DNA from: a virus
Lineage: Duplodnaviria > Heunggongvirae > Uroviricota > Caudoviricetes
DNA: 46,757 bases
Virus record (IMG/VR): IMGVR_UViG_2681813146_000008
Span: 1-46,757 of that record
Strand: one strand, 5' to 3'
Shown here: one piece after another, positions 8,817 through 46,757 of the stretch
Position numbering within the stretch: the first letter of the stretch is position 1
How the letters are laid out: each line of letters starts with the position of its first letter
Notes under the pieces: generated by a model
Databases searched by the model: none
What the model was told of the DNA's origin: nothing
The model's input: the letters and a program-made list of their open reading frames with translations, nothing else
Translations under genes and position numbers: made by a program

Positions 8817-8892
8817 AGTGGCGAACCTCCTGATTGGATTAGGCTTCGCCCTATGTTGAAGTGATTGTGCCTGACAAACAGCTAAGCGCAGT

Positions 8893-8910: not shown

Positions 8911-8958
8911 AAATAACGATATTTGTCTGCTTGCAGGGATAATCAACATAATGCTGAT

Positions 8959-9531: not shown

Positions 9532-9580
9532 CCCCCTGAATAAAAACCGGAGATGATGCCAGTTAGCTGTTACCTCTGCA

Positions 9581-9606
9581 TTTTCTTAAACGTTGGTTTG
9601 GGAGAA
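9581..9606. repeat. Invertase crossover site, left (gix/hix-like, 12-2-12)
   Basis: ttttcttaaacg-tt-ggtttgggagaa; the 14 bp 9593-9606 are a perfect inverted copy of 11415-11428. Confidence 0.75.
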
Positions 9607-10370: not shown

Positions 10371-10953
10371 CATCCGGCGCTGTGCTGGTATCTGTTGCCG
10401 TCACCGCGTCAATGTAATCCAGCACAGCGTTAAGGCGGGTTGTTTCTGCCTGCGTCAGTTTACGTCCGGCCTGCAATTTCAGCTGAATCAGACTGATGGA
10501 GGCCATTGCAGTATCAATCAGCGACTGGCGCTGTGCTTCTGCTGCATCTACTGCTGCGCCGTGCTGTGCCTCGGTATCCGTCACCCATTTCTCACCATCC
10601 CATTTATCGTATGGGGTTAACGGGGCGATAGTGGTTGTATTATCAGGATAATCACCCGGAGCTGTGATTTCTTTCGATTCTCCTGTTTCGGTGCTATAGA
10701 CGATTTCACCGCGATGATCTGGCACATATTTCCATGAATTTAAATCTACAGAGCGACAGATTGCATAACCAGCTTTATGTGTACCTGGTGCATCCAAACA
10801 AGAACATGCCGGAATACCGACGCCGACAGCGAGATATTCAGTTGATGTAGAAATATATTCCCGCGTTTCTCCGTTGTAGTTGTAAACGGTAATAAAGCCA
10901 GCTTCCGTGGCAAATCCGTTTTCATCCAAAGTGATTTTTTTTGTGGTCATCAT
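10342..10953 (-). CDS. Tail fibre assembly protein (G/Tfa-like)
   Basis: 203 aa directly downstream of H; C-terminal motif similar to the 9927-10370 product. Confidence 0.8.
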   Translation of the reverse strand: MMTTKKITLDENGFATEAGFITVYNYNGETREYISTSTEYLAVGVGIPACSCLDAPGTHKAGYAICRSVDLNSWKYVPDHRGEIVYSTETGESKEITAPGDYPDNTTTIAPLTPYDKWDGEKWVTDTEAQHGAAVDAAEAQRQSLIDTAMASISLIQLKLQAGRKLTQAETTRLNAVLDYIDAVTATDTSTAPDVIWPELPEA

Positions 10954-22684: not shown

Positions 22685-23742
22685 TGGGAAAGAGTAAGAA
22701 GAACCGCGCTGCGTCGACGAACCAGATTCAGCATAAAAGCCAGACTTCAGCCGAAGCATTCAGCTTCGGTGATCCCGTTCCAGTACTTGACCGCCGCGAA
22801 CTGCTGGACTATGTGGAATGCGTACAGACAGATCGCTGGTATGAGCCGCCCGTCAGCTTTGACGGACTGGCGCGCACCTTCCGCGCCGCTGTGCATCACA
22901 GCTCCCCCATCAGTGTTAAGCGTGACATTATCAGCAGTACCTATATTCCGCATCGTCTTCTCAGTCAGCAGGCATTTACCCGTTTTGTGCAGGACTATCT
23001 GGTTTTTGGTAACGGCTACCTGGAGAAGCGCACGAACCGTTTCGGTGAAGTTATTTCGCTGGAGCCTGCACTGGCAAAATACACCCGGCGCGGGCTTGAC
23101 CTTGAAACATACTGGTTTGTGCAATACAGCCTGACGACACAGCCGTATCAGTTCACAAAAGGTAACGTCTTCCACCTGATGGAGCCGGATATCAACCAGG
23201 AGATTTATGGTCTGCCAGGTTACCTTTCTGCCATTCCATCCGCCCTGCTCAACGAGTCCGCCACGCTGTTCCGCCGGAAGTATTACATTAACGGCAGCCA
23301 TGCGGGCTTCATCATGTACATGACCGACGCCGCGCAGAACCAGGAGGATGTGAACAACCTCCGCAACGCAATGAAAAGTGCCAAAGGTCCTGGTAACTTC
23401 CGTAACCTGTTTATGTACTCGCCTAACGGCAAAAAGGACGGGCTTCAGATCATCCCGTTATCGGAGGTTGCGGCAAAGGATGAGTTTCTGAACATCAAGA
23501 ACGTGAGCCGCGATGACATGATGGCAGCGCACCGCGTACCGCCGCAGATGATGGGCATTATTCCCAACAATACCGGCGGCTTTGGTGATGTGGAAAAGGC
23601 CAGCCGCGTCTTTGTCCGCAACGAGCTGATGCCGCTGCAGAAGCGACTGCAGGAGCTTAACGACTGGCTGGGTGAAGAGGTGATCTGCTTCGAGCCTTAT
23701 TCTTTACAACTTGATGAAAGTGCTGATAGCAACAGGGGGTAA
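22681..23742 (+). CDS. Q: Portal protein Q
   Basis: 353 aa, P2 gpQ-like; ATGA overlap with P. Confidence 0.92.
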   Translation: MMGKSKKNRAASTNQIQHKSQTSAEAFSFGDPVPVLDRRELLDYVECVQTDRWYEPPVSFDGLARTFRAAVHHSSPISVKRDIISSTYIPHRLLSQQAFTRFVQDYLVFGNGYLEKRTNRFGEVISLEPALAKYTRRGLDLETYWFVQYSLTTQPYQFTKGNVFHLMEPDINQEIYGLPGYLSAIPSALLNESATLFRRKYYINGSHAGFIMYMTDAAQNQEDVNNLRNAMKSAKGPGNFRNLFMYSPNGKKDGLQIIPLSEVAAKDEFLNIKNVSRDDMMAAHRVPPQMMGIIPNNTGGFGDVEKASRVFVRNELMPLQKRLQELNDWLGEEVICFEPYSLQLDESADSNRG

Positions 23743-23745
23743 TGT

Positions 23746-24108
23746 ATGGGATGGATCGGCGTTGATCTGGATGGCACGCTGGCGGTGTACCCGCCAGAGA
23801 GCGGGGCGCTAATAGGTGATGCCATTCCCGGCATGGCGGAAAGGGTCCGCAAATGGCACAAGGATGATATTGAAGTACGAATTTTTACCGTCCGGGCTGG
23901 TTCGCGTGCCGGAGTGAAGCAAGTTAAAGCCTGGTTGAAAGCCAATGAACTGCCGGACCTGATGGTGACGAACGTTAAAGACAGCGGCATGGTGGAATTA
24001 TGGGATGACAGAGCGATACGTGTTATCCGTAATACCGGTTCAGTATGCGCCGGTTGCAACGGCACATCGCAGTTCCACCACCATTCAGGAGATTTCACCA
24101 ACTGCTGA
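23746..24108 (+). CDS. Small HAD-like hydrolase-fold protein (cargo between portal and cos)
   Basis: 120 aa starting 4 nt after the Q stop; HAD motif I IGVDLDGTLAV and a WDD motif near the C-terminus. Confidence 0.6.
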   Translation: MGWIGVDLDGTLAVYPPESGALIGDAIPGMAERVRKWHKDDIEVRIFTVRAGSRAGVKQVKAWLKANELPDLMVTNVKDSGMVELWDDRAIRVIRNTGSVCAGCNGTSQFHHHSGDFTNC

Positions 24109-24138
24109 GCCGGCAGGCATTCCGTTAACCATAACCTG

Positions 24139-24175
24139 AGCGCCTCAGCAGCATTCTGCGGGGCGCTTCTTTTTT
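24139..24175 (+). terminator. Intrinsic terminator after the P-Q-orf120 operon
   Basis: GC-rich hairpin followed by a T-rich run. Confidence 0.6.
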
Positions 24176-24262
24176 GCTGCCGCTCCCTCACCCTCACCGA
24201 TTGAAGCCGCCAGCGTGCCGGAGATTGCGCCGGATTTTCACCATTTCACCCCGTTGCGCGCG

Positions 24263-24281
24263 CTCGTATCCCCGCCACGCC
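24263..24281 (-). other. cos site of the P2-family prophage (19-nt cohesive-end sequence)
   Basis: Minus strand reads GGCGTGGCGGGGATACGAG, 14/19 identical to the P2 cohesive end GGCGAGGCGGGGAAAGCAC; lies just beyond the 3' end of Q as in P2. Confidence 0.65.
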
Positions 24282-24323
24282 TGCCCGCTTTGTGTAGCGG
24301 TTTTCATGCACCTGCATGACATA

Positions 24324-24350
24324 AGCAAAAGCCCGCCAGTTCTGGCGGGC
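24324..24350 (-). terminator. Terminator downstream of the DinI-like operon
   Basis: Hairpin gcccgcc-N6-ggcgggc followed on the minus strand by a T run. Confidence 0.5.
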
Positions 24351-24484
24351 CTCAGCAAAAACGATCCTCAAACGATCATGCGATTTCATGCGGCATAGAC
24401 ATGCACAACAGCACTAACGCCTCGCGTGGCTCGTTGTTCAACCTTGCGGACGGTAAAAACCAGTTTTATCGTCCGCAACGTTCG

Positions 24485-24718
24485 CTAATGTAACCAACTG
24501 TCGTCCTCCCAGACCTGCTGCATTATCTCCATCACCCGCTTTTTGTCTTCATCCAGTTTTAACCCGCTCAGTTCAACGCCATTGGCGCTGCCCTTGCGGA
24601 TACGAATTGCTGTTTTTGGATACAGAGGGCGCAAATTACGGTAAAGCTCGGATTCAAGGGCGTCCAGTGTAGACTGGCTAATCTTCTGCTCTTTATCGAT
24701 CATTATTTCAATGCGCAT
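24485..24718 (-). CDS. DinI-family protein (DNA-damage-inducible protein I-like)
   Basis: 77 aa, MRIE...DAL..EL...W pattern as in DinI; own AGGGA RBS; second gene of an SOS-box-controlled pair. Confidence 0.8.
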   Translation of the reverse strand: MRIEIMIDKEQKISQSTLDALESELYRNLRPLYPKTAIRIRKGSANGVELSGLKLDEDKKRVMEIMQQVWEDDSWLH

Positions 24719-24729
24719 ACAGATTCCCT

Positions 24730-24918
24730 TTAACTGGTTACGTCCATTGACCGGCAGTATTCATGGCTGCGGATTTTCGCCATCAACTCGTCGGTCAGTT
24801 CGGACACCCACTGGATAGCCAGCCGCTTTTCTTCGTCGCTGCACTCACTAGCCGCTACAAGCTTGATAAAAAAATCAATACGCTGGAGCTTTAATGACTC
24901 CAAAAGATAGTCCTGCAT
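24730..24918 (-). CDS. Small hypothetical protein, first gene of the SOS-regulated operon
   Basis: Start set at MQDYLL (AGGAGG RBS 6 nt upstream), 62 aa; the track ORF begins at an upstream TTG (24951). Confidence 0.6.
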   Translation of the reverse strand: MQDYLLESLKLQRIDFFIKLVAASECSDEEKRLAIQWVSELTDELMAKIRSHEYCRSMDVTS

Positions 24919-24966
24919 CTTCCCTCCTATCATTACACGGATACACAACAACTGTATATATACCCA

Positions 24967-24982
24967 CTGTTTATGCGTACAG
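24967..24982. promoter_or_regulatory. LexA (SOS) box CTGT-N8-ACAG
   Basis: CTGTTTATGCGTACAG, with an adjacent weaker box CTGTATATATACCCAC at 24952-24967; overlaps a candidate -10 (TATACT, 24981-24986) with a TTTACA -35 at 25002-25007 (15-nt spacer, short). Confidence 0.65.
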
Positions 24983-25077
24983 TATATGAGAGATTTAAAA
25001 ATGTAAAACTCTTTTTTGTCAGTTAATTGGATAAACTGACGCCAGTCAATAAAGCACGAATTGTTAAAGCTGCAGCA

Positions 25078-27471
25078 TCAGTACCACTGACGCCATTTGT
25101 CATCTTCCTGCAGCCTCTGGTTACGGTAAAAAATACGTAAACCGGCACCGGATGGAATGCTGCCGCCACGCAGAAGCAAATCAATCTCAGATGCACTACC
25201 TTCAAACCCTCTGGCAGTCAGTTCTGCCTCAAGCTGCAGGCGCTGCTGCTCCGAAATACTCTGTATGTATGCTTTTTTCCGCTTCGGTTTTACCAGTCTC
25301 AACCTGGCTGTCAGCTCCCGCCGTTCCTTCTGGCCCATGTTGTGGAGATATTCCTGCAGCTCCTTCTCACCCATGGTTTTAATATCAGGTAAATCACCCC
25401 CTGATTTGTTCAGATTTTCAACAGGGGGACAGTTATTGCCACGAGTCCAAGGGGCGCAAGCGCCCTGGTCGGCTGCCGCCTCCTGAACGTCAACGGCCTT
25501 ACGAACCATTTTCCACTTCACTGCATGAGTGCAGATCTTGCCCTCTGCAATGGGTGACCAGATGCCATAAATACGAATGCCGTGATCGCCATAGGCGGTC
25601 GGCTCTTCGTTGATTTCATAAGCGGTTCTGATCAGGTGATATTTGCGGGGAACCAGTACGCCGCCCTGCTTCATGATGTAGGTGGCAAAACAACCAGCAT
25701 CAGCAGCAGCCAGGATTGCATCAAGGCGCGGGTTATCCAGTACCGGCGCACCTGCTTTTTTGTCCCCCTGTTGCCTTGCCGCCTGACCAGCCAGCAATCG
25801 CAGTTCACGGTAAGCCTGACGCCCCGGAATGCCAAAGAAGCGGAATTGCTGAACACGATGCAGAGACGCCCAGGCATTAACGTATTCAGCATTATCACGC
25901 AGGGATTTCCCCGTTTCCTTGCTGATCTCGCCAGCCAGACCACGCCCGTCAATGTTCTTACTGATGTATTTCGCGATGTAGCTTGTTGGCGTACCTTTGC
26001 GCGGGTTAATCAACTCAGACTTAAAGCGCGGCCCAGTGTTATTGCCCAGCTCCTCGCGGTCTTCACGGATGGCAAACTTACGCAGTAATACAGTGATGGC
26101 GCGGCGGTCTTTTTTGCGCATAAAACACAACAGGTGCCAGTGAACTGTACCGTCATGATGCGGCTCAGCCACCCGCACGCCATACCAGCGCAATCCGGCT
26201 TTGTGCATCGCCTTACGAAATGCAGCAAACATGCCGACCAGGTAATCACTACTTTGTCTTACCGTCGCATTTGTCCAGGTTGGGTTGGGCCTGCCGTTAT
26301 TTAGCGTGGAATGGAAACGTGACGGACAGGTGATGGTGTAGAAAACGGCACAGTCACTGCGCATTTCTGCGATAAGCTCCAGACCTTTAACACAGGCCAT
26401 CATCTCATTGCGGCGATGCGCCGGGTTGCTGCTGCTGGCGTTTACCACATCTTCCATATCCAGCGTGTCACCGTCTTCGTTCACCAGTTCATGAGAACGG
26501 AAAAACTCCAGCGACTTACGGCGCTGCTCACGTTTATGCATCACGGCTTCATAGCTGACATAGGGAGATACTTTTTTGCTGACCAGACAGACAGCACGCA
26601 ACTGCTCTTCCCGCCATTCGCAACGCATCTTCCATAATTTCCTATGCCACCAGTCGGCGCACAGCATACGCGCCAGCGAACCCGGAATGAGTTCATAGGG
26701 CACGGGTTTACGGCGGTTTCTTTTCCGACGGAGTTGCTCAAACGCAGGCGGGATGACATCCAGTCGCAGGGTTTCTGCTGCCACCTTTTCCCATGTCTTG
26801 CGGATTTCTTCTGGCTTAACATCATCGGTGGCGTACAAATCACCACAAGCGGCATCAAGACACATGCTCATATGCGCAGCGACAAGAGTAGACAGGCGTT
26901 TCACCTGATCCTGACTCATTTCAGGCAGGATCAGCAGGCCGTCCAGCCCTTCATGGCTTGCCATAAAGCGAAAAGAAGTGGATAGCTGACTCTCGCGTAC
27001 ATGCTCCAGTCGTTCCAGACATGGCTTAATCGTCTCACGCAAATAGCGGGAATAAGCCTTTGGCCTGCCCAGGCTGCTGAAGTATTCAATACGTTGCATC
27101 AGCGGCTTGCTGATATGGGAAGGCTGGGCGCTGACATCTGCCAGAATGACCATGTCTGGGTTAAAACGCTGCTGCTCATGCGCCAGCTTTGCCCGACTAA
27201 TGAGCTTATCCTGCTCCATTTCGCGCTGGACAGGATCACGGGATTCATTAAAGAAATAACGCTCCCAGACCTGATCACTCAGTGCCTCACGGCGCAGCAG
27301 TTCCTGCTCGTTATCGGCAGCGTACAGAGTGATCAGGTTTGAGAGCGCAGAAACCGGCGCAACTTCCGCCGGGTCCAGATAAGGGTTAATGGCCTTTTTC
27401 GGGCTGTTCCATGAGAACGATGCGGCAGCCTCGTTAAAGCCGCAGCAGTTGTTCATATCGGCATGGTTCAT
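25078..27471 (-). CDS. A: Replication initiation protein A (rolling-circle nickase family)
   Basis: 797-aa ORF with P2 gpA-like motifs ([22 protein letters not shown]); the true start may be an internal Met. Confidence 0.88.
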
Positions 27472-30900: not shown

Positions 30901-31920
30901 ATGACCATCAGAAAACAGCCGAACGGAAAATGGTTGTGTGAGTGCTATCCCAATGGACGCAATGGCAAGCGCGTGCGTAAGCAATTTGCCACGAAAGGCG
31001 AAGCCATTGCGTTTGAAAGCTTCACAATGGAAGAAGTGAATAAAAAACCGTGGTTGGGTGAAAAGGATGATCGGCGACGCCTATCAGAATTAATTGAGCT
31101 TTGGTATTCCCTGTATGGTCAGACACTCGCAGACCCCAAGCGCCTCATGGCGAAACTTAGAATTATCTGTAATGGTCTAGGCGACCCCATCGCCTCTGAG
31201 CTGACAGCAGGTGATTTCACAAAATATCGGGAAGCCAGATTAAAGGGGGAGGTCCAAAATGAAGACGGTTCGTTCATGTCACCCGTTAAACCTCGCACAG
31301 TTAATCTTGAGCAGCGTAACCTGTCATCGGTGTTCGGTACATTGAAAAAACTAGGGCACTGGTCCGCACCAAACCCGCTGGCAGGGCTTCCAACCTTCAA
31401 AATTGCTGAAGGTGAATTGGCTTTTCTTTCCACGGACGAAATCAAACGCCTGTTGGCTGCATGTGCTGAATCTCAAAGCCCGAGCCTACTAATGATTACC
31501 AAAATATGCTTAGCTACCGGCGCACGGTGGAGTGAAGCCGAAAAACTGCAGGGCCATCAGTTATCCAAATACCGCATCACTTATACCAAGACGAAGGGCA
31601 AGAAAAACCGTACCGTGCCGATATCTCAGGAGCTGTACAACGAACTTCCTAAAAACCGAGGGAAGTTATTCTCGCCATGCAGAAAAGCCTTTGAGCGTGC
31701 AGTAAAGCGGGCCGGTATTGAGCTTCCAGAGGGTCAATGCACCCATGTATTACGTCATACATTTGCCAGCCATTTTATGATGAACGGAGGAAACATACTT
31801 GTTCTTAAAGAGATTCTCGGTCATACAGATATAAAAATGACAATGGTTTATTCTCATTTTTCCCCAGACCATCTTGAAGATGCCGTTACCAAAAACCCTT
31901 TACATATGTTAACTATTTGA
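30901..31920 (+). CDS. int: Tyrosine integrase (P2/186 type)
   Basis: 339 aa; C-terminal catalytic R...H-x-x-R...Y (HVLRHTFASH, MVYSHF). Confidence 0.92.
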   Translation: MTIRKQPNGKWLCECYPNGRNGKRVRKQFATKGEAIAFESFTMEEVNKKPWLGEKDDRRRLSELIELWYSLYGQTLADPKRLMAKLRIICNGLGDPIASELTAGDFTKYREARLKGEVQNEDGSFMSPVKPRTVNLEQRNLSSVFGTLKKLGHWSAPNPLAGLPTFKIAEGELAFLSTDEIKRLLAACAESQSPSLLMITKICLATGARWSEAEKLQGHQLSKYRITYTKTKGKKNRTVPISQELYNELPKNRGKLFSPCRKAFERAVKRAGIELPEGQCTHVLRHTFASHFMMNGGNILVLKEILGHTDIKMTMVYSHFSPDHLEDAVTKNPLHMLTI

Positions 31921-31930: not shown

Positions 31931-33151
31931 ATGGATATTAAAAACAAAGTCAATAAAGAAAAGTTATTTGAGAACCATTTAAACTCATTATTAAAACAAG
32001 TCATTTCCGAACCAAAATTAAACCCTCCACTTATAGTACATAGAGATATAATAAGTGACTTCACTGAACGTTGCGATAAGTATCTAAAAACAATAATTAA
32101 ATACAAAAGCAACAATAAAGATGGGATGCCGAATTTTGATGAATTAATCAGCAAAGTTAAGAACATTCAAAATGGAATAACATTATCACTTGAAAGTTTT
32201 TTATCAGGTGATATCAAGTCAGCATATGACCACTTTGATAAAACATTCTCTGATAACTCAACAATCCAACACATACATCGCATCACTACTCCACTCAGTA
32301 GCATTTGCAATCATAAAAAACCATTATTTCGAGTTAGAAAAAGTGAAAATCCTCTAACGTCAAGAGATGAAATTTTCCATATTCCATTCTCCAATAGACA
32401 TTTTGTTAGTGCACAAAGATATTCAGTCGCTGGCTTACCATGTTTATATCTTGGCACTTCTGTTTATGTTTGTTGGCAGGAGATGGGAAAACCAGATTTT
32501 GACAAGCTTTTTATTTCATCATTTACTACCAGTGAAACTGAATATAAAGTCTTAAACTTTGCATCACAGCTTTTGTTACATCCCTCACCAAATTACGCCG
32601 ACGAAAATAAACTAGCCGAAACAAATAGAGTAAAGGCCTCTTATCTCATTTTCTGGCCTTTAATTATTGCATGTAATTATTTAAAAAATCATCGTTCTGC
32701 AACATTCATACAAGAGTACATTATCCCTAATTTGTTGATGCAATGGATTAGTAGAAAAACTTACTCGAAAATTGTCGGTGTAGCTTACTTCTCTACAAAA
32801 ATGCCTAATTCACGATTAAGTAACCGCTCAATAAATGTTGTATTTCCACCCAAAGTTACATATGAACAAACGGTAAAACAAAATTTTTGCCCTAAACTCT
32901 CCACATTATTCGACTTTACGCCACCTATTTCGTGGCAGGTCTTAAAAACATTAGATCATTCATCAATAACAGAAAATTCAATAGAATTGATGATGTCAAA
33001 GAGATATCTTCAAAGTCAAGAAAAACTGTCTGGAATTAAAAACTTCGAAGAGGACATTGTAAAACTATACCCCTTAACTGATTTTTACAAACTCGAAAGA
33101 AGTATTGATATGCTATTTGAATATAAAAAGATAGATAACCCCATACTATAA
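31931..33151 (+). CDS. AT-rich hypothetical protein with a RES-like motif (cargo between int and att)
   Basis: 406-aa ORF, strongly AT-rich and Lys/Asn-rich versus neighbouring phage genes; central segment RYSVAGLPCLYLGTSVYVCWQE resembles the RES-domain core; same strand and 10 nt downstream of int. Confidence 0.6.
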   Translation: MDIKNKVNKEKLFENHLNSLLKQVISEPKLNPPLIVHRDIISDFTERCDKYLKTIIKYKSNNKDGMPNFDELISKVKNIQNGITLSLESFLSGDIKSAYDHFDKTFSDNSTIQHIHRITTPLSSICNHKKPLFRVRKSENPLTSRDEIFHIPFSNRHFVSAQRYSVAGLPCLYLGTSVYVCWQEMGKPDFDKLFISSFTTSETEYKVLNFASQLLLHPSPNYADENKLAETNRVKASYLIFWPLIIACNYLKNHRSATFIQEYIIPNLLMQWISRKTYSKIVGVAYFSTKMPNSRLSNRSINVVFPPKVTYEQTVKQNFCPKLSTLFDFTPPISWQVLKTLDHSSITENSIELMMSKRYLQSQEKLSGIKNFEEDIVKLYPLTDFYKLERSIDMLFEYKKIDNPIL

Positions 33152-33267: not shown

Positions 33268-33315
33268 ATGTAGGAATTTCGGACGCGGGTTCAACTCCCG
33301 CCAGCTCCACCAAAT
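33268..33315 (+). repeat. Prophage att repeat, distal copy (48 bp); also the left junction of the P4-like element
   Basis: Perfect copy of 1015-1062. Confidence 0.9.
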
Positions 33316-33496: not shown

Positions 33497-34684
33497 GTGG
33501 CACGGACAACACGCCCCCTTACCAACACCGAAGTTCTTCGCGCTAAAGCGTTAGAGAAGGATCTAACTCTGCATGATGGCGATGGCCTTTTCCTGATAGT
33601 GAAAACCAGCGGGAAAAAGCTCTGGCGTTTCCGTTATCAACGTCCAGCGACAAAACAGCGGACAATGATGGGGCTTGGTGCTTTCCCCGCCCTTTCACTT
33701 GCTGACGCCCGAGGGTTAAGAGCGGATTACCTTGCCTTGTTAGCCAACGGAATTGACCCACAAATTCAGGCCGAAGTTGCAGAGGAACAGCAGCAAATCG
33801 CTCTGGACAGTATTTTCTCAATGGTCGCCGCTAACTGGTTCCAGCTCAAAAGTAAAAGCGTTACCCCTGATTACGCAAAAGACATTTGGCGCTCATTGGA
33901 GAAAGATGTATTCCCTGCCATCGGTGAGATCCCCGTTCAGCAAATTAAAGCCCGAATATTAGTTGAAGCATTGGAACCAATCAAAGCTCGTGGAGCGCTT
34001 GAGACTGTACGTCGACTAGTGCAGCGTATTAACGAGATAATGATTTATGCCGTAAACACTGGTCTGATTGATGCCAATCCAGCATCAGGTATTGGAATGG
34101 CCTTTGAGAAGCCCAAAAAACAAAACATGCCGACGCTGCGGCCAGAAGAATTGCCGAAGCTGATGCGTTCTTTAGTCATGTCAAATCTGTCTGTTCCGAC
34201 TCGCTGTCTCATTGAATGGCAACTCCTGACGCTCGTGCGCCCTTCTGAGGCCTCTGGTGCCCGTTGGGCAGAGATCGATCTCGATACGAAGCTCTGGACT
34301 ATTCCAGCCGAACGGATGAAAGCTAAGCGGGAACACATTGTTCCTTTATCACCACAGGCATTAGAGATTCTGGATGTAATGAAGCCAATTAGCGCTCACC
34401 GAGAACATGTTTTTCCCAGCAGGAATGATCCTAAACAACCTATGAATAGCCAAACTGCTAATGCTGCTCTTAAAAGGATTGGTTATGGCGGTAAACTCGT
34501 TGCTCATGGGCTTCGTTCTATAGCTAGCACAGCGTTGAACGAGTCTGGTTTTAATTCCGATATTATAGAATCAGCTTTAGCGCATATAGATAAAAATGAA
34601 GTACGGCGGGCGTATAATCGTTCTATTTATTTAGAACAACGCAGAGAATTGATGTCATGGTGGGGTATAAAAGTAAAATCATAG
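33497..34684 (+). CDS. int: Tyrosine integrase, P4/CP4-57 IntA family
   Basis: 395 aa, GTG start with AAGGAG RBS; adjacent to the ssrA 3' end repeat as in CP4-57. Confidence 0.92.
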   Translation: MARTTRPLTNTEVLRAKALEKDLTLHDGDGLFLIVKTSGKKLWRFRYQRPATKQRTMMGLGAFPALSLADARGLRADYLALLANGIDPQIQAEVAEEQQQIALDSIFSMVAANWFQLKSKSVTPDYAKDIWRSLEKDVFPAIGEIPVQQIKARILVEALEPIKARGALETVRRLVQRINEIMIYAVNTGLIDANPASGIGMAFEKPKKQNMPTLRPEELPKLMRSLVMSNLSVPTRCLIEWQLLTLVRPSEASGARWAEIDLDTKLWTIPAERMKAKREHIVPLSPQALEILDVMKPISAHREHVFPSRNDPKQPMNSQTANAALKRIGYGGKLVAHGLRSIASTALNESGFNSDIIESALAHIDKNEVRRAYNRSIYLEQRRELMSWWGIKVKS

Positions 34685-34698
34685 GGCTTTCGCCCTAT
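34681..34698. terminator. Bidirectional hairpin between convergent int and the 913-aa gene
   Basis: atagggc-tttc-gccctat. Confidence 0.4.
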
Positions 34699-34708
34699 GA
34701 TTTAATAA

Positions 34709-37450
34709 TTATAAAGTTTCCAATGCGAAATTTCGATATCTCATTAGTGCATAAATATATCTAGTAGTAGATGCAGGTGTCCATGTTCTCTCAAGTTCTT
34801 TTGCTAGTGCTGCCCCCATCATTTTCTTATCATCATCGCCAAATTTATTTACATAAGCATTTAATATTTTGATAGCTGGAGATTCAGTGACTAACCTAGC
34901 TAAAGCCCTTTCAAGGCTGATGCTTTCTAATATAACTTCTATTTTATTATTTATCACCACACCATCATCTTGTCGAGAACAAAAACCTAAAGAAATTAAA
35001 TCCTGCACTGCATTCCTATGTTTATTCGCCTGAATGAATGAATGGCTCATTTTTTTATTGGCGCACAGATACTCGGCAACTTCGAGTGTTTTTTCTGGCG
35101 AAGTAGCAGCTAAGAAAAGTGATCCTCTTCTATTACGTGCCCCTCTTTTATCTAGATCAATCGCCCCAAATGCTGGGGAAAACAACTCGCCATCATATAT
35201 AACCACAGATTTCCCGATAACCGCTATCAGCCCCGTAAATTGTAACCAAGCCAATAATTTTGAACTATAAGACTTAGGATAACCACCGTCTTTATTCTTA
35301 TAAGTATGGGCTATTATAGATTCATACTTATCGATAGGAACTCTTCTTAAATCGGCATCAACAATATTCTCTGCCAATTCTAACAAAACACTATGACTCT
35401 TAAAATGCTCACGAAGAAACTCAGGGACATTTGTGATAGTCTGTTTACAAACTATATTCCCATTTAAATCTCTGTCTATGAGAACAAAATACTGCAAATC
35501 CATTAAAACATTTATTAATGTTCCCCGACTATATTTTAGTTTAGTTTGCAGTTCATCCAAGCTAATGGTTTTGAACGAGTTTACAACATCAAGAATTAAC
35601 AAAACCATTTTCGGAGATGTTGATGGCATATATGACCATGGTATAACTGGAAGGTCATTTCCTTTCAAGTAATCTCGAAAAACGTCCCAATACACTGATA
35701 ATTTTTCACCTGTTTTAATTACCATCCTATCTGAAATTAGCTCTAAAACAGTATCACTCCCAAACTCTTTAGTAACTTCATATTGACTAATCGGAGAGTT
35801 CTTTGCCACAAATTTTAAACATGAATTTTGTTTTTCAGGCCTATCTAAATCCTCATGAAATAAATTTGAGATCTGTAGTTGACTAACCAACATTTGATCC
35901 TGTGAGATACCTCCTTTTAGTTTTTTGAATACATGAATACAAAGCTTTTTCAATAACCATGGATAACCTTGAGCTTGCTGAATAAGACGCGTGCGTAAAG
36001 GTTTATTTAATTTAAACCCTGTATTTAGCTCGAAACTATTAATTAATTTAGATGAATCTTTTAGATCAAAAGGCTCAAGTTTCTTTTCAACCCTATAATC
36101 TTTTAGCCGATTCCACATTGAGTACGCTGGATTTTCATCCCCTAAAGTAATACCAGTTCTCCATGAGAACCCTACAACTAAATTGCTTTGTAGTGCCGAG
36201 ACATCGAGTGCGAATCGTTCAAATTCTTTAAATAGCCCGAATAGTTCCTCTTTCATAAAGACTTCTTCGAACTGATCAAAGAAAATAGTCAATACCTTAT
36301 CATGTTCGGAAAGGTATTTTAAACATTCCTGAACACTCTCAGATCCTATGATATCCGTAACACTCTCAATCAGGAATGGTTTTTCATATTCGATAAAACC
36401 TTCTTTGATCGCACTGCTGAAAGCTTTAACGACAGCTTCTGCCACAAAACGTCCGCCTCTAGCAGAACGGACATCGACTGGTGTAAGGAAGAATTTATTC
36501 TTCCATTTTTGATTTTTAAATCTTGAGGATAGCCTTGCTATTAAAGATGACTTTCCATTTCCTGAACCGCCTATAAGTGATAGGACTCTACTTTGAGAGC
36601 TATTTCCTCTAACATTCTCAAGATAATCCCAAACTTCTTTCTGTATATATTCGCGACCAACAAAGTCTTTCGGCTGACATGGCTTATAATCCATAAAATC
36701 GTCAGCAAGAATTATTTCACTGACAATTTCCCTTTCGTAATTTTCAGATAATTTTGAAGACGAAACAGTTTGTTCCGGTTCAGATAATATATAAAAATCA
36801 GTTACTTCCAACCCTTCAAAAAGCCCTTGCTCCTTTATAATATCACTTATGCGACTGACACTTGGAATTTTACTATTTTTATTTATAGCGAACGGCACCA
36901 CTCTTATAGGGCTACCATTTTCAACTTCTTGCAAAAGCCAAGTCATTTCTATTTCAGGATGAACTAAAAGTGTTGCACTAGTATATTTTGCCGGAATGTC
37001 ATCTGTTGGAATATCCTCAACCTTACCTGTTGCAAGTATAGATATAAGAATCTCTTTTTTATCAAAAAAAGAATAATCTATACGCTCATCAAGTCTATAA
37101 TCCTCAAGCGTTGACTGAGCATCTTTACCCAAATCAGAAATTGAAAAAAGTGCAATTTTTTTAACTCTCAACCTAAATGCTTGAGAAAATGCCAAATCAA
37201 CCACAGATGAATCAACTTTTTGCTGCATGAATTTACATTCTACATACAGCTTTTCATTTGATGGTGTATGAGTAGCCTGAATATCAATTTCCATGCCAGA
37301 TTTTCTGACTTCCATACCATCAATTCTATACGATTGCCGGCGGAGTATATCAGCGCAAAAATTCTCGAAAAACTTCCCTCTCGAGGTATTGGAATAATTA
37401 CTAGGTACACAAACTATCAAATCTTTATTCAGTGGTAACGGCCTGGCCAT
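34709..37450 (-). CDS. Large hypothetical protein: N-terminal Mrr-like PD-(D/E)xK nuclease motif plus P-loop NTPase; candidate antiviral defence protein
   Basis: 913-aa AT-rich ORF; N-terminus GMEIDIQA...YVECKF (D...E-x-K); Walker A LIGGSGNGKSSL and Walker B-like VLTIFFDQFEE; occupies the position of gop-beta-cII between cos and int. Confidence 0.7.
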   Translation of the reverse strand: MARPLPLNKDLIVCVPSNYSNTSRGKFFENFCADILRRQSYRIDGMEVRKSGMEIDIQATHTPSNEKLYVECKFMQQKVDSSVVDLAFSQAFRLRVKKIALFSISDLGKDAQSTLEDYRLDERIDYSFFDKKEILISILATGKVEDIPTDDIPAKYTSATLLVHPEIEMTWLLQEVENGSPIRVVPFAINKNSKIPSVSRISDIIKEQGLFEGLEVTDFYILSEPEQTVSSSKLSENYEREIVSEIILADDFMDYKPCQPKDFVGREYIQKEVWDYLENVRGNSSQSRVLSLIGGSGNGKSSLIARLSSRFKNQKWKNKFFLTPVDVRSARGGRFVAEAVVKAFSSAIKEGFIEYEKPFLIESVTDIIGSESVQECLKYLSEHDKVLTIFFDQFEEVFMKEELFGLFKEFERFALDVSALQSNLVVGFSWRTGITLGDENPAYSMWNRLKDYRVEKKLEPFDLKDSSKLINSFELNTGFKLNKPLRTRLIQQAQGYPWLLKKLCIHVFKKLKGGISQDQMLVSQLQISNLFHEDLDRPEKQNSCLKFVAKNSPISQYEVTKEFGSDTVLELISDRMVIKTGEKLSVYWDVFRDYLKGNDLPVIPWSYMPSTSPKMVLLILDVVNSFKTISLDELQTKLKYSRGTLINVLMDLQYFVLIDRDLNGNIVCKQTITNVPEFLREHFKSHSVLLELAENIVDADLRRVPIDKYESIIAHTYKNKDGGYPKSYSSKLLAWLQFTGLIAVIGKSVVIYDGELFSPAFGAIDLDKRGARNRRGSLFLAATSPEKTLEVAEYLCANKKMSHSFIQANKHRNAVQDLISLGFCSRQDDGVVINNKIEVILESISLERALARLVTESPAIKILNAYVNKFGDDDKKMMGAALAKELERTWTPASTTRYIYALMRYRNFALETL

Positions 37451-37570
37451 TTATACACTCCTTATCTCATATCCTTTTGACAAGTAAGATATCAACCTCG
37501 AGTTTCAGAAACCAGTATCTTGCGCATATTTACGACATCAAAACTTTTGGTTATGCACCCACAGCGCGCA

Positions 37571-37589
37571 GTGCTTTCCCCGCCTCGCC
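37571..37589 (-). other. cos site of the P4-like satellite (19-nt cohesive-end sequence)
   Basis: Minus strand reads GGCGAGGCGGGGAAAGCAC, an exact match to the P2/P4 cohesive end. Confidence 0.8.
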
Positions 37590-37692
37590 CGCCCGCTTTG
37601 CGGGGCGGTTTTAATACAGTTGCACTGACACGCTCAGACCGCGCCGGGAATGGTGCGGTCTGCAGAAAATGAGGCAGGAAAACGCATGCAAA

Positions 37693-37723
37693 GCCATGCA
37701 CCTTATCGATGCATGGCTTTTTT
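37693..37723. terminator. Hairpin plus T-run between psu and cos
   Basis: gccatgca-N9-tgcatggc followed by tttttt on the plus strand. Confidence 0.4.
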
Positions 37724-37753: not shown

Positions 37754-38326
37754 TTACACAGACTGACGTGATGCCAGTTGCGCACTTTTACGCGAAAAAA
37801 TCATGTTCTGCGCAGGGGTGAATTTTTCACGGCTGTCATCCACCGAAGCCGCGTCAGGCCTGAATCCGATGGTCGTTAAAATGTCACTATCCTGTGCGGA
37901 ATAATTAATTTTTTCCCCCTTCGCAAGCCAGGACAGAAGGGCTTCACGCAGGGCATCTGTGGCACGCTGTATGGCACAGTTTCGGGCAATGGCCGTCAGC
38001 TCACTGTAGCCCATCAGCTCCGGTGCCAGTGCCGCCGCCAGTGCTGTGCCGTGCTGCTGCATAAAATCATTCAGCCGGTCGCGGATGCTGATGTGCTGAA
38101 CGGCTTCATGCGAACGAATATAACGACCGGCGGCCTGATTCACCTGCCATTTTCTGACTTCGATAATATTGCGTAATTCGTCCAGGCGACTGACGTTTCT
38201 GCCTTCTCCTGACTGAAGCCGCAGATATTCCTGTTCGGCCGCAGCCAGCTCATTTTTGCGTTGCAGCCATGCTGCTTTGTTATTCTGACAGGTGTCAAAG
38301 GCCTGCTGTAAGGCTGTGCTTTCCAT
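37754..38326 (-). CDS. psu: Polarity suppression protein Psu (Rho antagonist, capsid decoration)
   Basis: 190 aa, sequence recognised as P4 Psu (MESTALQQAFDTCQNNKAAWLQRK...). Confidence 0.9.
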   Translation of the reverse strand: MESTALQQAFDTCQNNKAAWLQRKNELAAAEQEYLRLQSGEGRNVSRLDELRNIIEVRKWQVNQAAGRYIRSHEAVQHISIRDRLNDFMQQHGTALAAALAPELMGYSELTAIARNCAIQRATDALREALLSWLAKGEKINYSAQDSDILTTIGFRPDAASVDDSREKFTPAQNMIFSRKSAQLASRQSV

Positions 38327-38399: not shown

Positions 38400-38900
38400 T
38401 CATTCCAGACGCAGCGAATATGATTGTGTTTTTAACCGTACTGGCGGCAGTTCCTGTTTTTCATGCAGGCTTTCTGCAAGCTCGTCCGGCGTGACCGGGC
38501 GGACAATGAAGCGGTTGATGGTCTGAAGCGTTTTAAACACCAGACCACAGCCCGGATCCGTGCACACATAAAAACGCTCGGTGACTTCCTGAGACAGACG
38601 CCGCGATGTTCTTGACAGCGCAAGGCCTTTACATCTCCGACAACAATATCCGGTAACAAGCATTCTTTTCGGGCGCTTCATGCTGCCGGAGGCTGACGTC
38701 AGTGAATCGCGGTATCTCTGTTTGCCTGAAATGTATTCCATTCCTGAATCTTTACAGTCAGAGAAAAAGCTTTCACTCGCTTCAAATGTCGCAGAGCAAT
38801 AAATATTCCGGCACTGTGCAATCATTATCTTGGTGCCATCGTCCATGAAATGTGCGCAACGGGTGTGAGCAACATGTCCACACGACGGGCAGTAAATCAT
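38400..38900 (-). CDS. delta: Delta late-gene transactivator (tandem Ogr-like zinc fingers)
   Basis: 166 aa with two Ogr-type zinc-finger units (CPSCGHVAHTR... and ...CCRRCKG...CTDPGCG). Confidence 0.9.
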   Translation of the reverse strand: MIYCPSCGHVAHTRCAHFMDDGTKIMIAQCRNIYCSATFEASESFFSDCKDSGMEYISGKQRYRDSLTSASGSMKRPKRMLVTGYCCRRCKGLALSRTSRRLSQEVTERFYVCTDPGCGLVFKTLQTINRFIVRPVTPDELAESLHEKQELPPVRLKTQSYSLRLE

Positions 38901-39801: not shown

Positions 39802-39905
39802 TGTTCACCTCTGTTCACCATAAGAAAAAAGATAAGTAATACAGTAAGTTAAAGGGTGAACAATCGCAGTAATGACTGTTCACCGTCTGTTCACCACTGT
39901 TCACC
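39802..39905. repeat. Iteron cluster (six TGTTCACC octamers), candidate satellite ori
   Basis: Octamers at about 39802, 39812, 39877, 39888, 39898 (direct) and 39855 (inverted), mostly at 10-11 bp spacing. Confidence 0.7.
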
Positions 39906-42245: not shown

Positions 42246-44579
42246 ATGAAAATGAACGTAACCGCCACCGTCAGCCATGCGCTCGGCCACTGGCCGCGTA
42301 TTCTCCCGGCGCTGGGGATTCAGGTGCTGAAGAACCGTCATCAGCCCTGTCCGGTCTGTGGCGGGAGTGACCGCTTCCGTTTTGATGACAGGGAGGGGCG
42401 CGGCACCTGGTACTGCAATCAGTGTGGTGCCGGTGACGGCCTGAAACTGGTTGAAAAGGTGTTTGGTGTTTCCCCGTCCGACGCGGCCGCAAAGGTGGCT
42501 GCCGTGACCGGCAGCCTGCCACCGGCTGACCCGGCAGTGACGACCGCCGCCGTTGCTGAAACAGACGCTGCCCGGAAGAACGCCGCCGCACTGGCACAAA
42601 CCCTGATGGCGAAAACCTGTCCCGGAACCGGTAACGCCTACCTGACCCGCAAGGGCTTTCCCGGCCGGGAATGCCGGATGCTGACCGGCACACACAGAGC
42701 CGGTGGCGTGAGCTGGCGCGCCGGTGACCTTGTGGTGCCACTGTATGACGACAGCGGCGAACTGGTTAACCTTCAGTTAATCAGTGCTGACGGCCGTAAG
42801 CGCACCCTGAAAGGCGGACAGGTCAGGGGCACCTGTCACACCCTTGAAGGACAGAATCAGGCAGGAAAACGTCTGTGGATAGCGGAGGGATACGCGACCG
42901 CACTTACCGTGCATCACCTGACCGGTGAAACGGTGATGGTGGCGCTTTCTTCCGTGAACCTCCTTTCTCTGGCCAGCCTTGCCCGACAGAAGTATCCGGC
43001 CTGTCAGATTGTCCTTGCCGCAGACCGTGACCTCAGCGGTGACGGCCAGACAAAAGCCGCCGCAGCCGCAGATGCGTGTGAGGGCGTTGTTGCCCTGCCG
43101 CCGGTCTTCGGTGACTGGAATGATGCCTTCACGCAGTACGGCGGGGAGGCCACCCGTAAGGCCATTTACGATGCCATCCGGCCACCGGCTGAAAGCCCGT
43201 TCGACACCATGAGCGAAGCGGAGTTTTCCGCCATGAGTACCAGCGAAAAGGCCATGCGTATCTATGAGCATTACGGCGAGGCGCTCGCGGTCGATGCCAA
43301 CGGCCAGCTTCTGTCCCGTTATGAAAATGGTGTCTGGAAGGTGCTGCCACCACAGGACTTTGCCCGGGATGTGGCCGGGCTGTTTCAGCGGCTGCGCGCG
43401 CCGTTCTCCTCCGGGAAGGTGGCCTCCGTGGTGGACACCCTGAAGCTGATTATTCCGCAACAGGAAGCCCCCTCCCGCCGCCTGATTGGCTTTCGTAACG
43501 GCGTGCTCGACACGCAGAACGGCACGTTCCACCCGCACAGTCCGTCACACTGGATGCGCACCCTGTGCGATGTGGATTTCACCCCGCCGGTGGAAGGTGA
43601 AACGCTGGAAACCCACGCTCCCGCGTTCTGGCGCTGGCTTGACCGTGCCGCCGGTGGCCGTGCGGAAAAACGCGACGTGATTCTGGCCGCACTGTTTATG
43701 GTGCTGGCAAACCGCTACGACTGGCAGCTCTTTCTGGAGGTGACCGGTCCCGGCGGCAGCGGCAAAAGTATCATGGCCGAAATAGCCACCCTGCTGGCTG
43801 GTGAGGATAACGCCACGTCGGCCACCATCGAGACGCTGGAATCCCCGCGTGAACGTGCCGCGTTAACTGGCTTCTCACTGATACGCCTGCCGGACCAGGA
43901 AAAATGGAGCGGCGACGGAGCCGGACTCAAGGCCATCACCGGCGGCGATGCGGTGTCCGTTGACCCGAAATACCGGGATGCGTACTCCACGCACATCCCG
44001 GCGGTAATTCTGGCCGTGAACAATAACCCGATGCGCTTCACCGACCGCAGCGGCGGCGTGTCACGCCGGCGGGTGATTATTCACTTCCCGGAACAGATAG
44101 CCCCGCAGGAGCGCGACCCGCAGCTTAAGGACAAAATCACCCGCGAGCTGGCGGTCATCGTGCGTCACCTGATGCAGAAGTTCAGCGACCCGATGCTCGC
44201 CCGGTCACTGCTTCAGTCCCAGCAGAACTCAGACGAGGCACTGAACATCAAACGGGATGCCGACCCGACGTTTGATTTTATCGGCTATCTGGAAACCCTG
44301 CCGCAGACCAGCGGCATGTATATGGGGAACGCCAGTATCATCCCGCGTAATTACCGTAAATACCTCTATCACGCCTATCTGGCCTACATGGAGGCAAACG
44401 GCTACCGGAATGTACTCAGTCTGAAAATGTTCGGGCTGGGGCTGCCGGTGATGCTGAAGGAATACGGACTGAATTACGAGAAGCGCCATACCAAACAGGG
44501 GATACAGACCAACCTGACGCTGAAAGAGGAAAGCTACGGCGACTGGCTGCCAAAATGTGACGACCCTGCAACAACCTGA
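42246..44579 (+). CDS. alpha: Alpha primase-helicase replication protein
   Basis: 777 aa; N-terminal zinc-binding primase motif CPVCGGSDRFRFDD...YCNQCG; Walker A GPGGSGKS in the helicase region. Confidence 0.92.
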   Translation: MKMNVTATVSHALGHWPRILPALGIQVLKNRHQPCPVCGGSDRFRFDDREGRGTWYCNQCGAGDGLKLVEKVFGVSPSDAAAKVAAVTGSLPPADPAVTTAAVAETDAARKNAAALAQTLMAKTCPGTGNAYLTRKGFPGRECRMLTGTHRAGGVSWRAGDLVVPLYDDSGELVNLQLISADGRKRTLKGGQVRGTCHTLEGQNQAGKRLWIAEGYATALTVHHLTGETVMVALSSVNLLSLASLARQKYPACQIVLAADRDLSGDGQTKAAAAADACEGVVALPPVFGDWNDAFTQYGGEATRKAIYDAIRPPAESPFDTMSEAEFSAMSTSEKAMRIYEHYGEALAVDANGQLLSRYENGVWKVLPPQDFARDVAGLFQRLRAPFSSGKVASVVDTLKLIIPQQEAPSRRLIGFRNGVLDTQNGTFHPHSPSHWMRTLCDVDFTPPVEGETLETHAPAFWRWLDRAAGGRAEKRDVILAALFMVLANRYDWQLFLEVTGPGGSGKSIMAEIATLLAGEDNATSATIETLESPRERAALTGFSLIRLPDQEKWSGDGAGLKAITGGDAVSVDPKYRDAYSTHIPAVILAVNNNPMRFTDRSGGVSRRRVIIHFPEQIAPQERDPQLKDKITRELAVIVRHLMQKFSDPMLARSLLQSQQNSDEALNIKRDADPTFDFIGYLETLPQTSGMYMGNASIIPRNYRKYLYHAYLAYMEANGYRNVLSLKMFGLGLPVMLKEYGLNYEKRHTKQGIQTNLTLKEESYGDWLPKCDDPATT

Positions 44580-44595
44580 CCATCATGACTCATCT

Positions 44596-44619
44596 GACCG
44601 GCATCTGCCGGTCTTTTTT
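44596..44619 (+). terminator. Intrinsic terminator after alpha
   Basis: Perfect hairpin gaccggca-tc-tgccggtc followed by tttttt. Confidence 0.7.
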
Positions 44620-44633
44620 CATCCCTGAATCCC

Positions 44634-44938
44634 CCGAAGGTGAACAATCCAGTGTTCACCCTTCACCGTATGTTCACCCGTTATCACACTGAAATTAAAA
44701 GAGAAAAACGAAAGGTGAACAGTGTGAACAATCAAATCAAAAAAAACTTTTTTTCTTCCTGTGTGATTTTCAGTGCGGAGGATTAATCGCCGGTATGAGT
44801 CACACCGGCAGAATGCCGGAGGTGAAGAATCGAATGTTCACCCTTCACCCATTATTTACCACCTATCCAACTGAAATAAAAGGAAAAAACAGAAAGGTGA
44901 ACAGTGTGAACAGTTCTTCCGAAAAAAAATTTTTTTCC
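44634..44938. repeat. crr-like region: two ~120-bp imperfect direct repeats, each with TGTTCACC/GGTGAACA octamers
   Basis: Unit A about 44634-44757 and unit B about 44816-44938; octamers at about 44639, 44653, 44671, 44714 and 44835, 44896 plus degenerate copies; each unit ends in an A-run/T-run. Confidence 0.7.
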
Positions 44939-45082
44939 TGTACGATATAGCATCAATCCAAGTAAAAATGCGCTTTCATTTCACATTAACTTACAGCCAT
45001 TGGTATACGATTAGGTATACGCACAAAAACTGAATTAAACAAAATCATTAAAAATCAAAGCAATACAATATTTATTCAAACT

Positions 45083-45104
45083 CCGCCAGCTCCACCAATC
45101 ATGA
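45083..45104 (+). repeat. Degenerate att repeat at the right end of the satellite
   Basis: ccgccagctccaccaa-tcatga matches the ssrA 3' end with two single-base deletions. Confidence 0.6.
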
Positions 45105-45226
45105 TTGGACGGTGTAAGGACTACACCAACAAAAACAGGAAGTTATAAGTCTCAGCAGGACACCGACCAGACGGTGAGGAGACAAAAAAGGATACGCAAC
45201 GGAGTCGCGACTCCCTATGACATTAA

Positions 45227-45249
45227 AGCCCGCTGATGCGGGCTTTTTT
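45227..45249 (+). terminator. Intrinsic terminator in the host junction region
   Basis: agcccgc-tgat-gcgggct followed by T6; a perfect 14-bp palindrome ggagtcgcgactcc lies just upstream (45201-45214). Confidence 0.5.
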
Positions 45250-45680
45250 ATTGGTCCTGACCCGCCCTGAATAGAATTCATCCAATTACAGTCCAGACAT
45301 ATACAGTATCCCTCAGCTCAGTATCAGCTTCTCGACAAATGGTCACTGTTATTTACCCGTTGCCAGAAAGAGAATAATTTGCTCCCATAGCCAGCCTTCC
45401 CGGAATCTGTATATTCATTAATATTGTTATCGATTCCATCAAGTAACATAGGTTGGATGCGATTGATCTTACTCACATTAGTCGACACGGAACTCAGTAA
45501 GTTGAACTCTGGAAAAGCAGTTTAAATAGCATTTAAACAAATGCCACCAGTTCGAAAAAGAGTATAAGCACACTTAATATATTGTTTTAATTATTCATTT
45601 CCTTTCAACCCAATTCTTATCCCTCACATTATTTGTTATTAATTTGTTATTTTTGATCACAATAAGAAAACAATATGTAA

Positions 45681-46757
<1,077 letters not shown>

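Follow-up and report, generated by a model that had tools for sequence, protein, structure and literature searches.

The virus record IMGVR_UViG_2681813146_000008 of IMG/VR (Caudoviricetes) contains a P4-like satellite, and we here focus on the single gene found in the variable slot of this satellite, the product of which we consider likely to be an antiviral protein of the Avs-like (bacterial NLR-like) class. All positions given below are those of the window, i.e., the entire stretch of 46,757 nucleotides analysed (positions 1 to 46,757 of the record). The gene in question, hereafter the cargo gene, is an open reading frame (ORF) for 913 amino acids on the minus strand (positions 34709-37450), which begins with an ATG codon and encodes an Mrr nuclease, a STAND NTPase and a duplicated winged-helix region, the putative sensor. 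Its product is identical to WP_000113630.1, and its nucleotide sequence is 100% identical to the coding sequence labelled 'restriction endonuclease' in RefSeq under this accession, which is found in 54 Escherichia coli genomes. A Shine-Dalgarno sequence (AAGGAG) can be read at positions 37458-37463 on the minus strand, 7 nt 5' of the start codon. Just after the stop codon, a terminator scan detected a hairpin with a 12-bp stem followed by a T-run (positions 34676-34703, minus strand); this terminator lies between the stop codons of the cargo gene and the convergent integrase gene, and is shared by the two. As roughly 7% of random codons would be stop codons at the base composition of the ORF, 913 open codons are expected by chance with a probability of ~1e-29 (a hand estimate).

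The slot occupied by the cargo gene is bordered on the left by int for a P4-type integrase (positions 33497-34684, plus strand; Pfam Arm-DNA-bind_3, Phage_int_M and Phage_integrase), and on the right by the P4 cos site (positions 37571-37589, minus strand), a 19-mer that matches GGCGAGGCGGGGAAAGCAC exactly and nowhere else in the window. Beyond cos lies psu, a conserved gene of the satellite (positions 37754-38326, minus strand; Pfam Psu, E 4e-88). The preliminary description of this DNA had proposed that one AT-rich ORF fills the interval between int and cos, and indeed the 913-aa gene is the only cargo there. Its G + C content is ~35%, versus ~52% in the flanks (33-38% along the ORF, and 47-53% in int and psu), which is the pattern expected of acquired cargo. 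RefSeq annotates in addition a 69-aa 'hypothetical protein' (WP_071590424.1, E. coli strain 4/4), the ORF for which corresponds to positions 37492-37701 (minus strand) of the window and overlaps both cos and the GC-rich region upstream of the cargo gene. This short ORF probably reflects an artefact of annotation rather than further cargo.

The same description had taken the slot for a known location of variable cargo, and a comparison across satellites bore this out. The flank composed of psu and cos is present in ~1050 of the 5426 complete E. coli genomes, and the cargo gene accompanies it in only 54 of them. All these 54 copies are chromosomal and at least 99% identical. Elsewhere, the same slot is filled by the EcoO109I restriction-modification system, or by genes for a helicase and a hypothetical protein. 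The cargo gene thus sits between int and cos/psu in a subset of satellites that are otherwise conserved. It is carried by ~1% of the complete E. coli genomes, and was also found in Salmonella and Raoultella; many of the carriers are human isolates.

The family to which the cargo protein belongs extends well beyond this satellite. A database search retrieved 536 homologues, and the full-length ones are ~890-950 aa in length and share the same layout. Most of them belong to Gammaproteobacteria and others were found in Desulfobacterales or in metagenomes, and distant relatives are encoded on plasmids across phyla (Burkholderia, Nostoc, Chryseobacterium, Streptomyces and others). In all nine genomic contexts examined, the family is represented by a lone gene. 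The identical protein in E. coli strain 4/4 (WP_000113630.1) is encoded in a P4-like satellite located directly at ssrA, of which int is disrupted by IS1. In Providencia rettgeri (GCA_021868735.2, L012, positions 8001-10751), a relative of 916 aa with 29% identity is encoded in a P2-like prophage, between a Toprim replication gene and the portal gene; the family therefore occupies equivalent cos-adjacent hotspots in a helper-type P2-like phage and in the satellite. The gene in Photobacterium profundum adjoins IS66, HEPN_Toprim_N, T5orf172 and RnlA genes, and that in a metagenome-assembled genome of Desulfobacterales resides in an island with genes for Abi_alpha, a kinase, an N6_N4 methylase, SMC, SLFN/AlbA and ResIII. 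The relative in Aeromonas lies at the end of an element with integrase, AlpA and Mob genes, and that on a JGI metagenome contig adjoins Mu-like prophage genes, HigB and a Y1 transposase gene. No homologue was found among the deposited phage genomes of the collection searched, although the family occurs in prophages.

These settings bear on the possibility that the gene serves the satellite itself, by interfering with or exploiting the helper phage, or by acting as an addiction toxin through which the island is stabilised, with no role in phage defence. The cargo gene directly adjoins cos and psu, and a TIR-NLR protein encoded in the same hotspot restricts P2 and lowers P4 transfer (PMC9122126), both of which would suit such a function. 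Nevertheless, the gene is missing from ~95% of the satellites with the same flank, and thus does not belong to the life cycle of the satellite. Besides, the family is represented by a lone gene outside satellites in Serratia, Acinetobacter, Photobacterium and Desulfobacterales, and no conserved antitoxin-like partner was found beside it in any of the contexts examined. We regard a function of this kind as very improbable.

The domain anatomy of the protein could be traced over its whole length, with all the coding segments described below on the minus strand. Residues 1-145 (positions 37016-37450) constitute an Mrr-type PD-(D/E)xK nuclease domain, which is the predicted effector. The Pfam profile Mrr_cat matched residues 24-117 with 32.1 bits (gathering cut-off, 21), and the codons for the catalytic residues D56, E71 and K73 lie within positions 37232-37285. 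The nuclease domain is followed by a small acidic, beta-rich domain (residues 146-222) and an acidic linker modelled with low confidence (residues 223-254), which were delimited by DSSP and the predicted local distance difference test (pLDDT) scores of the structural model described below (together, positions 36689-37015). The net charges of the two are -6 and -7, respectively, residues 223-238 have pLDDT values below 50, and residues 146-254 are the least conserved of the N-terminal segments. The STAND nucleotide-binding domain then spans residues 255-460 (positions 36071-36688), as judged from Pfam matches, invariant motifs and fold matches. nSTAND1 (PF20703) matched residues 255-402 with 32 bits, above its gathering cut-off of 27.1, and the match of AAA_16 to the NTPase region was under its threshold. 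PF20703 is precomputed for nearly all of the 120 homologues listed, which bear the name 'nSTAND1 domain-containing NTPase' in several sources. Walker A is located at residues 294-302 (positions 36545-36571), and Walker B at residues 388-396 (positions 36263-36289). The STAND module is completed by a helical domain (residues 461-536) and a winged-helix domain (residues 537-600), which were recognised from the secondary structure of the model and from invariant residues (together, positions 35651-36070). The remainder of the protein, residues 601-913, is the putative sensor and falls into two halves. The first half (residues 601-760; positions 35171-35650) comprises a winged helix and a helical/winged-helix module, and the second (residues 776-913; positions 34712-35125) is its internal duplicate as detected by hhalign. 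As a consequence, the C-terminal ~450 aa that had been left unassigned in the preliminary description can be assigned to the helical domain, the winged-helix domain and the duplicated winged-helix sensor.

The residues essential to the predicted activities were invariant in an alignment of 46 homologues reaching down to 28% identity. In the nuclease domain, these are E54 and D56 of the EIDIQA motif, and E71 and K73 of the YVECKF motif. Likewise invariant are G297, G299, K300, S301 and S302 of Walker A (GGSGNGKSS), and D392, E395 and E396 of Walker B (IFFDQFEE), as well as the G495-x-P497 motif in the helical domain and residues W498, K501, K502, H506, Y587, W588 and D589. The motifs that had initially been picked out by eye as Mrr-like, Walker A and Walker B-like are therefore real, and the proposed order of a nuclease, a STAND NTPase and a C-terminal region agrees with the Mrr_cat and nSTAND1 matches above the gathering cut-offs. 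The degree of conservation differs markedly along the protein. The STAND module (nucleotide-binding, helical and winged-helix domains) is the most conserved part, with 85-88% identity among close homologues versus 61-70% in the sensor; at mid-range divergence, the corresponding values are 65% and 27-37%.

A full-length AlphaFold2 model generated from the family alignment (mean pLDDT, 83.8) placed the nucleotide-binding, helical and winged-helix domains of the STAND module in this order. In a Foldseek search of the PDB with the full model, the top match was EcAvs4 bound to the portal protein (8dgf_B, E 1.6e-10), followed by PAB2304, SSO1545, RuvB, Orc/Cdc6, NOD2 and NLRP3; the structures of both Avs3 (8DGC) and Avs4 (8DGF) were among the fold matches. 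The fold matches for the nucleotide-binding domain comprised PAB2304, Orc/Cdc6, ZAR1, NLRP3, MalT, SeAvs3 and EcAvs4. By sequence, a search of the PDB with the single protein and with the family profile gave nothing significant, the best matches being a winged helix-turn-helix regulator (E 0.005) and AF1548 (E 0.02). The resemblance to Avs proteins suggested earlier is consequently sustained at the level of fold. The cargo protein possesses a STAND NTPase core, an N-terminal effector of a type that Avs proteins use (a nuclease), and a C-terminal region that is more variable than the core.

The sensor, ~310 aa in length, is the fastest-evolving region of the protein. When modelled separately, residues 600-913 were predicted with a pLDDT of 87.4 and a predicted template modelling score of 0.81, and no solved structure matched the sensor as a whole. 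Alignment of residues 605-740 against residues 777-910 by hhalign gave a probability of 97.4% (E 1.2e-11, 127 columns), and the controls gave at most 0.3% for reversed or column-shuffled profiles and at most 5% when other domains of the same protein were included. Judged from these profile comparisons, the sensor is an internal duplication of a unit composed of a winged helix and a helical part. In an exhaustive search of 1.84 billion proteins, the sensor was found in only 87 clusters (representatives at 50% identity), and every full-length match occupied the same position in the same architecture. Matches of ~420 aa were considered as candidates for other architectures using the sensor, and those inspected turned out to be 5'-truncated fragments of the same family. 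Fast divergence combined with restricted occurrence is what would be expected of a dedicated, quickly evolving sensor. The net charge of the winged-helix modules was also considered as a clue to DNA binding and was uninformative, the modules being near-neutral (net -1 to +2.5, family average).

The nature of the sensor raises an alternative in which the protein is an NTP-dependent, restriction-like enzyme: four consecutive winged-helix modules would bind phage DNA that is modified, unusually structured or replicating, and the STAND ATPase would act as the switch for Mrr cleavage, which brings the protein nearer to a type IV restriction enzyme. The name 'restriction endonuclease' in RefSeq accords with this possibility, as do the matches of the nuclease domain to those domains that carry out cleavage in AspBHI, a modification-dependent enzyme, and in LlaBIII, an enzyme of type ISP. 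Moreover, the C-terminal modules are closest to DNA-binding winged helices (MarR, ArsR, Csa3 and Z-alpha), a ligand that is duplex or palindromic would be well matched by a sensor with a pseudo-twofold duplication, and the NTPase fold is also near that of the DNA-binding Orc1/Cdc6 initiators. Nevertheless, the protein-binding winged helices of the RPA32C and Stn1 types match the C-terminal modules equally well, and none of the modules is markedly basic. As for the ATPase, it belongs to the STAND/NOD type and is neither a translocase nor a helicase nor a McrB-type GTPase, and a sensor that diverges this quickly is easier to reconcile with an arms race against phage proteins than with the recognition of a generic DNA feature. 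We therefore deem this alternative unlikely, and favour an Avs-like protein in which the C-terminal region senses a phage-derived ligand.

Among the known systems, EcAvs4 (8DGF, portal-bound) offers the closest comparison. Both proteins are single polypeptides in which an Mrr-like PD-(D/E)xK nuclease at the N-terminus is followed by a STAND NTPase and, at the C-terminus, by the sensor, and by analogy they probably share the same logic, in which ligand binding leads to oligomerisation and then to activation of the nuclease. In contrast, EcAvs4 is 1534 aa long and the cargo protein only 913 aa, which is small for an Avs protein, as the preliminary description had noted. The identity between the two is only 13%, and the structural similarity is local (template modelling scores of 0.20 and 0.13). 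Furthermore, EcAvs4 uses a large sensor of helical repeats, whereas the cargo protein uses the duplicated winged-helix unit. Assignment to Avs4 was rejected, as no Avs model of PADLOC and no Avs chain in the PDB was matched by sequence, and the sensor is different.

Avs8A of the system Avs8 (PD-lambda-4), which senses major capsid proteins of the HK97 fold, likewise consists of an Mrr nuclease fused to a STAND P-loop NTPase and occurs in E. coli. Its cleavage of DNA in vitro requires the trigger protein, ATP and Mg, and we predict by analogy that the cargo protein would behave in a similar manner, cleaving DNA in dependence on a trigger and ATP/Mg. However, Avs8 is an operon of two genes (Avs8A and Avs8B), whereas the cargo consists of one gene only, followed by a terminator of its own. 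PADLOC v2 includes models for PD-Lambda-4. Assignment to Avs8 was also rejected, as the family gene stood alone in all nine contexts and the PADLOC v2 models gave no match at E values up to 0.1. More generally, on the basis of searches with the hidden Markov models of PADLOC v2, NCBIfam and PHROGs, we rejected an assignment of the protein to Avs1-5, to Avs8 or to any further system with a name.

A further relative in terms of organisation is the TIR-NLR protein (Rst_TIR-NLR) of the P4 hotspot, which was shown experimentally to confer broad defence against phages (PMC9122126). It shares with the cargo protein the hotspot and the single-gene arrangement of an N-terminal effector, a STAND NTPase and a C-terminal sensor (PMC9122126). 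The two differ in that TIR-NLR combines a TIR (NADase) effector with a sensor of TPR repeats, whereas the cargo protein combines a nuclease with a winged-helix sensor. Rousset et al. (2022) stated that other proteins of the hotspot have Mrr_cat in place of TIR (PMC9122126). On the other hand, the archaeal ATPases PAB2304 and SSO1545 as well as Orc1/Cdc6 possess neither a nuclease effector nor a duplicated C-terminal sensor, and their roles lie in replication or are uncharacterised, not in defence. Mrr and the type IV restriction endonucleases have in common with the cargo protein the catalytic family Mrr_cat and its pairing with winged-helix modules. In Mrr, however, the winged helix is N-terminal, the nuclease is C-terminal and no STAND NTPase is present, whereas the cargo protein shows the reversed order with a NOD module in between.

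The gene had initially been put forward as a candidate for an undescribed antiviral system, and on this point the proposal has to be given up. Under the accession WP_000113630.1, the very same protein figures as system #13 in Table S1B of Rousset et al. (2022), where it is described as NLR-like, with an endonuclease as its N-terminal effector (PMC9122126), and it also appears as seed #134 (NTPase, residues 264-516) among the 656 seed STANDs of Lee et al. (2026; bioRxiv 10.64898/2026.01.04.697583). The cargo protein is thus a catalogued member of the NLR-like/Avs class and not an undescribed system. Neither the protein nor its DNA is found in the tables of tested systems of Rousset et al. (PMC9122126). 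A full-text literature search for the accession returned no paper, the supplementary text files of a preprint on the P4/P2 hotspots from 2026 do not contain it, and neither a 2025 preprint on modularity networks nor the Domainator paper treats the protein. More than 1000 contigs carry the protein under generic names, with no Avs or other defence name in any source. The present analysis adds an assignment for the entire C-terminus, the recognition that the sensor is internally duplicated, relatives located in the P2 hotspot, and a plausible reason for which the family slipped through a systematic survey. In Lee et al. (2026), sensors were clustered, and proteins for tests chosen, only when the region following the NTPase was at least 400 aa in length (10.64898/2026.01.04.697583). 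By the boundaries given there, this region measures 397 aa in the cargo protein, so that it was probably left out of the sensor clusters.

The above circumstance also bears on whether the cargo protein may already be one of the validated and named Avs families of Lee et al. (2026), the candidates being EcAvs19, EcAvs22, EcAvs23 and EcAvs24; this would alter the novelty of the protein, not its mechanism. The exact accession is among the seeds of that study, ~110 STANDs were cloned, preferably those of Enterobacteriaceae and with their native promoters, and four of the families tested have representatives in E. coli. Against such an identity stand the 397-aa region, with which the protein probably never entered the clusters, and the absence of any defence name or any paper under its accession. 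The passages of the main text of Lee et al. on Mrr, on Avs22-24 and on the EcAvs proteins give no detail that identifies the cargo protein. We consider this identity improbable. Conversely, it is attractive to speculate, albeit with considerable doubt, that the protein is the first of a separate and compact Avs family (~900 aa) with a duplicated, pseudo-twofold winged-helix sensor, that its trigger, perhaps a dimeric protein of the phage or a structure in a nucleic acid, falls outside the list for Avs1-24, and that the family may have escaped the 2026 survey by the difference between 397 and 400 aa.

Taken with the precedents of Avs3, Avs4 and Avs8A, the cargo gene very probably defends against phages. 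As mentioned at the outset, we consider it likely that the gene encodes, in a single polypeptide, both the sensor and the effector of an Avs-like (NLR-like) antiviral protein, and that it is exchangeable cargo of the hotspot between int and cos. The following scheme can be drawn by analogy with these three proteins. The resting protein would be an autoinhibited monomer. Upon infection, a ligand derived from the phage, most probably one of its proteins, would bind to the variable C-terminal sensor (residues 601-913), and the STAND module (residues 255-600) thereby freed would bind ATP and oligomerise. The N-terminal Mrr-type nuclease domains would then be clustered in the oligomer, and cleavage of DNA would be switched on. 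Finally, the infection would be aborted or the phage DNA destroyed, and the population hosting the satellite would be protected from phages other than the helper. The record of the hotspot is in line with a defensive function, as 7 of the 18 further P4-hotspot systems tested by Rousset et al. were protective (PMC9122126), and the 2026 P4/P2 hotspot preprint reports protection in 8 of 11 and 6 of 8 systems tested.

Several observations weigh against this interpretation. The nSTAND1 alignment covers only positions 8-132 of the 379 positions of the profile. PADLOC v2 defence models did not match the protein except for a weak P-loop match to DndF, NCBIfam gave weak P-loop matches and a marginal match to YraN (E 0.094), all far under the cut-offs, and PHROGs gave no match for the 913-aa protein. 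The fold of the sensor is none of those described for Avs sensors (TPR-like, WD40 or FGE-like); it is built of winged-helix modules, a type that often binds nucleic acids, and thus the ligand could be DNA or RNA instead of a protein. In three of the nine contexts (Serratia, Acinetobacter and one ENA metagenome contig), neither mobile elements nor defence genes were evident in the neighbourhood. A consensus scan of the minus strand revealed no sigma-70-like site 5' of the start codon of the cargo gene. Lastly, we found no published experimental test of the cargo protein or its family.

If confirmed experimentally, the cargo protein would add a small (~900 aa), widely scattered NLR-like nuclease encoded by a single gene to the repertoire of antiviral STAND proteins. 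Its sensor, made of duplicated winged helices and not TPR-like, would differ from the types described, and would bear on how the ligand-binding modules of these receptors diversify. The case also illustrates that compact families can go unnoticed when a systematic survey applies a length cut-off. As it resides on a mobile satellite, the cargo gene may affect the phage susceptibility of clinical strains. Nevertheless, the general idea that the P4 hotspot carries an NLR-like nuclease was published as early as 2022, and the value of the present finding is therefore incremental.

The other parts of the satellite were located as the preliminary description had outlined. Besides int, cos and psu, they comprise delta (positions 38400-38900), alpha (positions 42246-44579) and two clusters of TGTTCACC iterons, one of which corresponds to ori (positions 39802-39905) and the other to crr (positions 44639-44903). 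The satellite is integrated in tandem with a P2-like prophage at ssrA. The window starts within smpB, followed by ssrA (positions 697-1059), and a 43-nt repeat of the ssrA 3' end (positions 33270-33312) separates the prophage from the satellite. At the right end of the satellite (about positions 44580-45780), we found no third ssrA-derived repeat beyond crr, even with an 18-nt core and 2 mismatches allowed, and the right att site of the satellite may thus have been lost.

The prophage carries genes for a portal protein (positions 22681-23742), a replication protein (positions 25078-27471) and an integrase (positions 30901-31920, detected in the Pfam scan). No match to the canonical P2/P4 cos 19-mer was found in the prophage, even at 3 mismatches. 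The cohesive ends of the prophage may therefore differ from those of the satellite residing next to it, and one may ask whether it serves as the helper. Downstream of the portal gene (about positions 24262-24282, minus strand), GGCGTGGCGGGGATACGAG can be recognised by eye, with 5 differences from the cos 19-mer. An AT-rich gene (~30-34% G + C) on the plus strand (positions 31931-33151) lies inside the prophage, between the integrase gene and the att repeat. Its 406-aa product matched nothing in Pfam, PADLOC or NCBIfam, and matched the PHROG phrog_7835 (function not assigned) with an E value of 1e-145. The gene looks like prophage cargo adjacent to att, and could be another candidate for a defence gene or a moron. 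The cos-adjacent hotspot of the prophage itself spans ~1.3 kb between the portal and replication genes (positions 23746-25078), and contains ORFs of 73-77 aa together with an ORF of 120 aa, the product of which starts with MGWIGVDLDGTL and displays, by eye, a HAD-like DxDGT motif.

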